Assembly: GCA_951406725.2 (NCBI GenBank)
Contig: OX597814.1
Coordinates: 179,614,001 to 179,678,000, forward strand
Length of the DNA: 64,000 nt
DNA from: Octopus vulgaris
Lineage: Eukaryota
Direction: 5' to 3'
Positions 26,699 to 28,051 of this stretch are shown here, piece by piece. Both the position numbers and the translations under genes were made by a program. Within the stretch, counting starts at the first letter, position 1. Each line of letters opens with the position of its first letter. Under the pieces are notes generated by a model. That model saw only the letters and a list, made by a program, of their open reading frames with translations, had not been told where the DNA came from and searched no databases.

Positions 26699-26993
26699 TA
26701 TATATATATATATATATATATATATATATATATATATATATTTGCATATATATGCTCATATATATATATAAATATACATATATATATATATATATATATA
26801 TATATATATTTGCATATATATGCTCATATATATATATATAAATATACATATATAAATATATATATATATATATCACAATCAAGGAACGGCCATAATAGGC
26901 CATTCACCCACTAGAAATAACAGCCAAAGCTTCAACCGCAAAATAACATTAATTCCGTAAACCAGGAGAAAATTAAAAAACATTTACCCTGTA

Positions 26994-27100
26994 ATTTCTT
27001 ATACGATGCACCGTTTCATCTACTGTTTAATGGTAAACTAACCTGATTAAATTAAATCAAGTCAATCTTCCATAGGCCCTTAGATTCGTCAGTAAGAAAT
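26994..27100 (-). ncRNA. Type I hammerhead ribozyme
   Basis: Reverse-complement copy of 27607-27713. Confidence 0.88.
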
Positions 27101-27606
27101 AGCCAGATCGGAACAGATATTTTCACGAGGCATTTCTGTCCCTGCCTCGGCAATATCTGACCTAAAATTTTCAAATCATCGCACTCGCGCCAAATTTATC
27201 GGCAGCAAATAAATATAAGCCGCCAATTCCATTACGGAATTAACCAGAAAATTCATAATTAATCAATATAGGGTGGCAAAAAAAATTTTGTAGAATTTTT
27301 TTGCCACCAGCGGCCTAGTGGGAAAAAATTAAATAGTCATACACCATTTTTAAGTTCAACATCACAATCAAGGAACGGCCATACTAGGCCATTCACCCAC
27401 TAGAAATAACAGCCAAAGCTTCAACCGCAAAATAACATTAATTCCGTAAACCAGGAGAAAATTAAAAAACATTTACCCTGTAATTTCTTATACGATGCGC
27501 GAGTGCGATGATTTGGCGCGAGTGCGATGATTTGAAAATTTTAGGTCAGATATTGCCGAGGCAAGGGACAGAAATGCCTCGTGAAAATATCTGTTCCGAT
27601 CTGGCT

Positions 27607-27713
27607 ATTTCTTACTGACGAATCTAAGGGCCTATGGAAGATTGACTTGATTTAATTTAATCAGGTTAGTTTACCATTAAACAGTAGATGAAACGGTGCA
27701 TCGTATAAGAAAT
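27607..27713 (+). ncRNA. Type I hammerhead ribozyme with extended stem II
   Basis: atttctta-CUGACGA-atcta-[58-nt insert]-tagat-GAAA-cggtgcatcg-UA^taagaaat; 8-bp stem I; predicted cut after 27705. Confidence 0.88.
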
Positions 27714-28051
27714 TACAGGGTAAATGTTTTTTAATTTTCTCCTGGTTTACGGAATTAATGTTATTTTGCGGTTGAAGCTTTGGCTGTTATTTCTAGTGGG
27801 TGAATGGCCTATTATGGCCGTTCCTTGATTGTGATGTTGAACTTAAAAATGGTGTATGACTATTTAATTTTTTCCCACTAGGCCGCTGGTGGCAAAAAAA
27901 TTCTACAAAATTTTTTTTGCCACCCTATATTGATTAATTATATATATATATATATATATATATATACATACACACACACACACACACACACACACACACA
28001 CACACACACACATATATATATATATATATATATATATATATATATATATAT

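Follow-up and report, generated by a model that had tools for sequence, protein, structure and literature searches.

A non-coding hammerhead repeat family of Octopus vulgaris with head-to-head arms and two fixed ends in TA repeats

The locus and its predicted ribozyme

The window analysed here, a 64,000-nt stretch of Octopus vulgaris DNA (assembly GCA_951406725.2, contig OX597814.1, forward-strand positions 179,614,001 to 179,678,000), holds a two-armed insertion of a 489-nt unit beside a Penelope-type element. Its features are as follows, in window coordinates; unit positions are numbered on the ribozyme strand, with position 1 at 27360.

24515–26697, plus strand: 5′-truncated young Penelope-type element beside the retrozyme locus, with reverse transcriptase (RT) thumb, zinc-finger linker and GIY-YIG-like end
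about 26698–26873: (AT)n target, left side, also the 3′ flank of the Penelope-type element ending at 26697
26872–27498, minus strand: arm A, 627 nt or 1.28 units
26872–27360, minus strand: one whole 489-nt unit, 36% GC, no open reading frame above 34 aa
26994–27100, minus strand: complete type I hammerhead of arm A, predicted cut after 27002
27497–27534, plus strand: joint at which the two arms meet head to head; arm B begins with a 19-nt tandem duplication
27499–27941, plus strand: arm B, in which 27511–27941 correspond to unit positions 166–489 and then 1–106
27607–27713, plus strand: complete type I hammerhead of arm B, core at 27615–27621 and 27690–27693, predicted cut after 27705
27836–27941, plus strand: the 106 nt that lead from site A to site B, probably equivalent to the Penelope "tail" (a concept found in the accessible text of PMC8557442 and PMC11167929)
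27939–28051: (AT)n/(AC)n target, right side

The original prediction had described a 489-bp unit in partial tandem, an inverted copy, (AT)n flanks and one complete type I hammerhead on each strand, and all of these were recovered. The direct repeat joins 26872–27009 to 27361–27498 at a spacing of 489 and 99% identity, the arms pair as 26872–27143/27564–27835 and 27255–27498/27698–27941, the (AT)n flanks occupy 26698–26873 and 27939–28051, and the core motif CUGACGA lies at 27615 on the plus strand and at 27092 on the minus strand. What is added to that first reading is the anatomy of a head-to-head two-armed insertion. The ribozyme-strand 3′ end of arm A lies at 26872 (unit position 489, hereafter site A) and that of arm B at 27941 (site B); at its inner end arm A breaks off at unit position 352, which is 8 nt short of the predicted cut site, and 27361–27498 carries the 3′ half only of a third hammerhead.

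The unit had also been described as free of open reading frames and strongly structured, and both descriptions hold on the circular form. The longest Met-started frame on the circle, both strands considered, is 34 aa; an endless frame, considered because 489 = 3 × 163, was excluded by 7–15 stops per round in all six frames. Neither the unit nor the sequence between its TA flanks contains an open reading frame with RT plus GIY-YIG, as an autonomous Penelope-like element would. The circular fold reaches −143.7 kcal/mol, against −108.8 ± 6.1 kcal/mol in 60 shuffles (z −5.7), and the five pairings named beforehand are all helices of this predicted fold (5/5), which is branched rather than rod-like; folding is strong on both strands. 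At full length the circle is predicted to prefer a non-catalytic form by about 3 kcal/mol, and a non-catalytic helix between 177–184 and 353–360 hides the cut site in the predicted fold.

In the hammerhead, stem I is AUUUCUUA/UAAGAAAU, the base of stem II (AUCUA/UAGAU) encloses a 68-nt arm and is followed by GAAA, stem III is palindromic, and the triplet GUA places the predicted cut after 27705 on the plus copy; on the unit, CUGACGA occupies 269–275, GAAA 344–347, and the triplet ends at 359. As a control, the motif scan gave 0 matches in the same 917 kb read backwards. Rfam at gathering score reports no hammerhead here, probably because stem II carries the 68-nt arm, and returns only a tRNA at 45134 (45134–45205, plus strand, 50.4 bits), which lies beside an (AAT)n run and may be the head of a tRNA-derived SINE. 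On the opposite strand of the unit, no hammerhead was found by motif scan and no other ribozyme type by Rfam at gathering score. The predicted monomer has a weak stem III, which does not form in the local fold; its palindrome would allow dimeric cleavage, by analogy with the axolotl (accessible text of PMC7229834).

A dispersed family and its insertion footprint

Candidate places for the unit number 1,249 in this genome (2.8 Gb, 227 contigs), and the best 40 of them, spread over many contigs, are 94–100% identical except for one at 86%. The genomic tandem arrays that the original prediction proposed to look for are present, the longest with 14.3 units. Judged from these sequences, the 489-nt unit is a young, dispersed and recently mobile repeat family. 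The loci that were read comprise 39 others from the best 40, 14 reached through a short B-end query, and 31 distinct loci of a sister subfamily, whose unit is about 482 nt long at 82–87% identity; the duplicate sister loci L108, L111, L118, L126 and L127 were counted once, a further A+B locus inside L263 was left out of the counts, and variant counts exclude segments below 93% identity. TA repeats stand on both sides, with the unit alone between them, in 47 of the 54 loci of the window's subfamily. Public sequencing runs that hold the unit carry four organism labels and belong to eight studies. A non-coding, low-GC unit in tandem arrays on many contigs, with one conserved type I hammerhead per unit, corresponds to the sequence definition of a non-LTR retrozyme, as had been proposed. 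Its supposed place at the large end of the size range did not stand: 489 nt lies above the 150–450 bp given in the accessible part of PMC7229834 but within the 51–972 bp in that of bioRxiv 10.64898/2026.07.22.740005, and is unremarkable.

The 12 positions of the hammerhead core show 0 changes in the 142 covering segments (core intact in 142/142), against 4.45 events expected after matching for base and CpG context (P 0.012). Between the two subfamilies, stem I passes from UUUCUUA/UAAGAAA to UACUUUA/UAAAGUA, stem II from AUCUA/UAGAU to AUCUG/CAGAU, and stem III from G-C through G-U to A-U, with pairing kept in each case, in a stem table in which 21 of 24 aligned units were parsed and three were not. 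An automatic consensus fold gave two-sided changes in 2/106 pairs, the changes being mostly one-sided, and this scarcity arises partly because a gap misaligns stem I. At the level of sequence, the ribozyme appears to be under selection and the predicted hammerhead looks alive.

The outer ends of the arms, which are ribozyme-strand 3′ ends fused to (TA)n, fall at two places only: site A, at unit positions 480–489 and up to 10 nt on (69 arms), and site B, at 99–115, 106 nt on from site A, with 50 of the 72 B ends exactly at 106. One end of each kind is found in 56 of 59 two-armed loci (39/39 in the window's subfamily and 17/20 in the sister subfamily); A/A or B/B pairs occur in 0/59, and three sister loci have one end elsewhere. 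The sampling is biased in favour of same-same pairs, the first 40 loci having been chosen by an A-ending unit and the other 45 by the B end. All 15 one-armed loci of the window's subfamily end at A or B, and arm B passes site A in 51 of 56 loci. The same end rule is followed by autonomous Penelope-type elements of this genome, in 5/5 two-armed loci of the family beside the window locus (ends about 59 nt apart) and in 15/15 readable loci among 20 fetched from a very active family (ends about 40 nt apart; L258, L261, L262, L274 and L275 were unreadable for it). Target-site duplications are unreadable within (TA)n. Two marks of a Penelope-mobilised element were found, namely a tandem or inverted structure with a tail at one end and an AT-rich or microsatellite target, and the Penelope link, part of the background of the original prediction, gains direct genomic support from the two fixed ends, the inverted arms and the TA target.

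The Penelope-type element at 24515–26697 has a 1.4-kb microsatellite-rich 3′ region and two fixed ends, with no canonical hammerhead found; its family has 4,448 candidate places and open frames of up to 1,025 aa. The very active family (L256–L275) has 21,494 candidate places and many 811-aa open frames, with no canonical hammerhead at the repeat junction, and a motif scan of three young Penelope-type families found none inside them. Pfam assigned 0 families to two of the Penelope-type frames, so that the label rests on a reading of RT, zinc-finger-linker and GIY-YIG-like motifs. Among 30 + 16 + 60 + 20 Penelope-type loci, from three protein queries and four families, no ends common to the unit were found, nested copies and one chimera aside; the unit is unlike the ends of these four sampled families, and within that scope the retrozyme reading withstands the objection, foreseen in the original prediction, that the unit might be only the terminal repeat of a Penelope element. 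The chimera (L262:2207–3577, G000:C13, the same as L124/L196/L262) is one inverted insertion of the very active family and the retrozyme: arm 1 is the autonomous Penelope-type 3′ end with its own tail, and arm 2 the 3′ region and open frame of the same element plus about 100 nt of the sister B end. It may be a template switch, possibly pointing to the partner, or a later insertion with deletion.

Other hammerheads lie nearby. Another type I hammerhead, unrelated to that of the unit and with a stem II of 66 nt, is found at about 29160–29262 (minus strand) and 29325–29430 (plus strand), between the inverted LINE-like 3′ ends 28477–29132 and 29766–30421; it ends at (AT)n 35 nt after its own cut site, and its inverted copy is decayed. 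At 35805–37125 a 488-bp unit is repeated 2.7 times in (TTA)n, with another copy near 22660–22840 and no convincing hammerhead by scan. The flanks contain at least five further hammerhead families with a long stem II, one as an inverted pair, at L059:301, L135:8853, L149:1116, L115:2826, L162:485, L257:8391 and L260:5975 and 6418. The genome seems rich in retrozyme-like families. For the giant squid genome, 235 hammerhead matches are given in the accessible text of PMC6962438.

Variants, joints and the presumed RNA template

Each insertion carries one template variant. In 27 two-armed loci, 129 of 129 comparisons of common variant sites agree between the arms, where 2,000 re-pairings of the arms give 37% disagreement, and 15 rare variants, in 12 of the 27 loci, are common to both arms where 0.26 would be expected. 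The two cDNAs may come from one molecule or from two sister molecules, since L056 fits one and L053 fits two. Most joints between the arms have an overlap of 1–9 nt.

The inner ends of the arms bear on the form of the template. Of the 48 stops of sister-subfamily arms, 21 fall in 350–400, immediately 3′ of the cut site, where 5.6 would be expected; this was confirmed against a sister reference and fits a cut linear RNA, in a stretch that is also AT-rich and near a 13-bp helix. The window's subfamily has no excess of stops there (11/93 against 10.7 expected), and across both subfamilies at least two crossings of the cut site are seen in 52 of 141 arms; the stops of the window's subfamily and the repeated crossing fit a ligated circle or, equally, an uncut multimer. 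Units differ by 3.2 changes within a locus and 7.0 between loci, on average, and the young arrays L065 and L052 are almost uniform over 4–7 units. In L058:1592–3937, intact and stem-III-broken units alternate as X,Y,X,Y, four times with a period of two, as would be produced from a dimer circle, though local duplication could do likewise. In L037, L056 and L032 the same single-unit variants are seen in each of the two arms, and in L039, L042 and L054 they return in units that do not adjoin; since several arrays share variants between non-adjacent units, tandem duplication after insertion also lengthens arrays.

The variants hold possible traces of an RNA stage. On the ribozyme strand, locus-wide variants comprise 7 A>G against 1 T>C (P 0.012), and single-unit variants 8 against 15, all small numbers; in the same split, purine to pyrimidine transitions stand at 13 to 3 against 38 to 44. 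This A>G lean fits A-to-I editing of ribozyme-strand RNA fixed by reverse transcription, or an error bias of the RT. Among the listed public runs, none of those that hold the unit is on record as RNA. The DNA run X15 gives 41x on the flank and about 10^6 summed depth on the unit; run X3, which is only guessed to be RNA, gives about 7,000 on the unit and 0 on the flank, as 0.3x DNA would also give, and its few variants absent from X15 are a weak hint only. A loose-end motif from two public runs is absent from this genome.

Proposed insertion mechanism and its alternatives

Based on these observations, we propose, with a probability of about 0.6, that this non-coding retrozyme is inserted as head-to-head arms because it borrows in trans a Penelope-type RT/endonuclease, which would cut each of the two target strands and reverse-transcribe RNA, probably circular, starting from either nick. 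An array would be transcribed on the ribozyme strand, a step supported by the strand-biased A>G variants; the predicted hammerhead would cut the transcript to unit length and a host ligase would close it, by analogy with the retrozymes of coral, mussel and axolotl. A presumed Penelope RNP, probably dimeric, would then nick (TA)n on both strands, with one cDNA primed at A and the other at B, the ends that are observed. Each RT would pass through the cut site and copy anything between part of a unit and 14 units, as is seen in the DNA, on what is presumably a circle, and the two cDNA 3′ ends would be joined by the short overlaps observed at the joints. In vitro, the anole Penelope protein, a predicted dimer, cuts and extends both strands from two internal start sites; the start site shows no difference between strands and ribozyme cleavage is not needed, two points that speak against the proposal (accessible text of PMC11167929).

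A single priming could also be imagined, in which the cDNA folds back and copies itself, an endonuclease resolves the intermediate and a tail is left at one end, as in ideas set out in the available parts of PMC3846280 and PMC8557442. Such a route accounts for the shared variants at once, which alone would also follow from fold-back, and 11 of 55 simple joints are near-palindromic where 3.8 would be expected (P 0.0014); yet 44 of the 55 are not palindromic, in 20 of 56 loci, the window locus included, each arm reaches beyond what the other contains, and the fall of the second end on one base is left unexplained, and we hold this route to be improbable. Double priming by the same Penelope machinery on linear RNA, that is, on uncut multimers and cut monomers, would make the circle unnecessary and let long arrays grow later by unequal crossing-over. 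The sister arms that end at the cut site, as on linear cut RNA, speak for it, as do the single-unit variants that recur in both arms or in non-adjacent units and the use of uncut RNA by the anole protein in vitro (PMC11167929, accessible text). The closer likeness of units within than between loci, the near uniformity of L065 and L052, and the repeated crossing of the cut site in 52/141 arms despite a conserved core speak against it, and we regard this alternative as rather unlikely.

Still less can be said for the reading in which the unit is a mere terminal repeat belonging to an autonomous Penelope element and has multiplied through local satellite amplification. This is a route proposed in bioRxiv 10.64898/2026.07.22.740005 (accessible text), the partner search spanned four protein families only, and a DNA query with the A end, which gave no matches, was probably too common, so that other elements may share the A end; nevertheless, the unit stands alone between TA repeats in 47/54 loci, variants are inherited from locus to locus, the ribozyme is conserved, and the unit has no likeness to the sampled Penelope ends, which makes this reading very improbable. 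A viroid-like circle that replicates as RNA and is occasionally endogenised would share the size, the lack of an open frame and the strong folding on both strands. Its fold would not be expected to branch as this one does instead of being rod-like, the opposite strand lacks the hammerhead that an Avsunviroid-like circle carries in both polarities, and hundreds of genomic copies bear a retrotransposon footprint; we consider it scarcely credible. Returning to Penelope double priming in trans, a more specific version is put forward tentatively and with some doubt: the RT dimer would be asymmetric, in each insertion serving one target strand from site A and the opposite strand from site B, both subunits would roll round an A-to-I-edited RNA circle, and the genome would thus record circular-RNA reverse transcription, RNA edits and germ-line ribozyme activity, with cut linear templates in the sister subfamily and closed ones in the window's.

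In L1 twin priming, two cDNAs started from opposite target nicks yield a head-to-head inversion joined by microhomology. The octopus retrozyme arms have the same head-to-head layout with short overlaps at the joint, but they start from two fixed internal sites and have sequence in common. With metazoan non-LTR retrozymes, as presented in the accessible text of PMC7229834 and bioRxiv 10.64898/2026.07.22.740005, the family shares non-coding tandem units with GC below 45%, one type I hammerhead each, a palindromic stem III, a predicted self-paired circle, and Penelope elements in the same genome. It differs in its 489-nt unit and 68-nt stem II arm, and in a predicted circle fold that blocks the cut site, which is free in most metazoan circles, the mussel excepted; insertion in (TA)n as inverted arrays of two arms, each with its fixed end, is undescribed for metazoan retrozymes in the accessible text of these two sources, and the words "inverted" and "microsatellite" occur 0 times in PMC7229834. 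There and in the bioRxiv paper, Penelope mobilisation and the circular template are proposals, and cleavage is given for 1/9 of the predicted Xenopus elements (bioRxiv 10.64898/2026.07.22.740005). Endonuclease-bearing Penelope-like elements, in the accessible parts of PMC8557442, PMC3846280 and PMC11167929, resemble the family in their partial tandems, an inverted 5′-truncated copy, a tail often at one end only, a (TA)n preference and two internal RT start sites. Unlike them, the octopus unit has no open reading frame, its ends are 106 nt apart rather than 30–40, its arms are many units long, and its end pairing is strict, whereas the tail is called "optional" in these sources and no strand difference is given in vitro.

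In the literature covered (titles and starts of abstracts, with subscription journals, supplements and repeat databases outside the scope), no such octopus or cephalopod hammerhead family and no strict end pairing is described. What is new is mainly the countable Penelope footprint, the retrozyme class itself being known. For the return of animal retrozymes to DNA, Penelope helpers have been proposed from co-occurrence and terminal-repeat likeness, and the circular template is a hypothesis. In the octopus family the "optional tail" becomes strict, with one per insertion, a rule shared with autonomous elements of the same genome, and the footprint of the family bears on the disagreement between the self-priming model and the start at two sites in vitro. 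With its exact pair of start sites, its target and its 489-nt template, the family makes the suspected Penelope route of spreading testable with purified protein.
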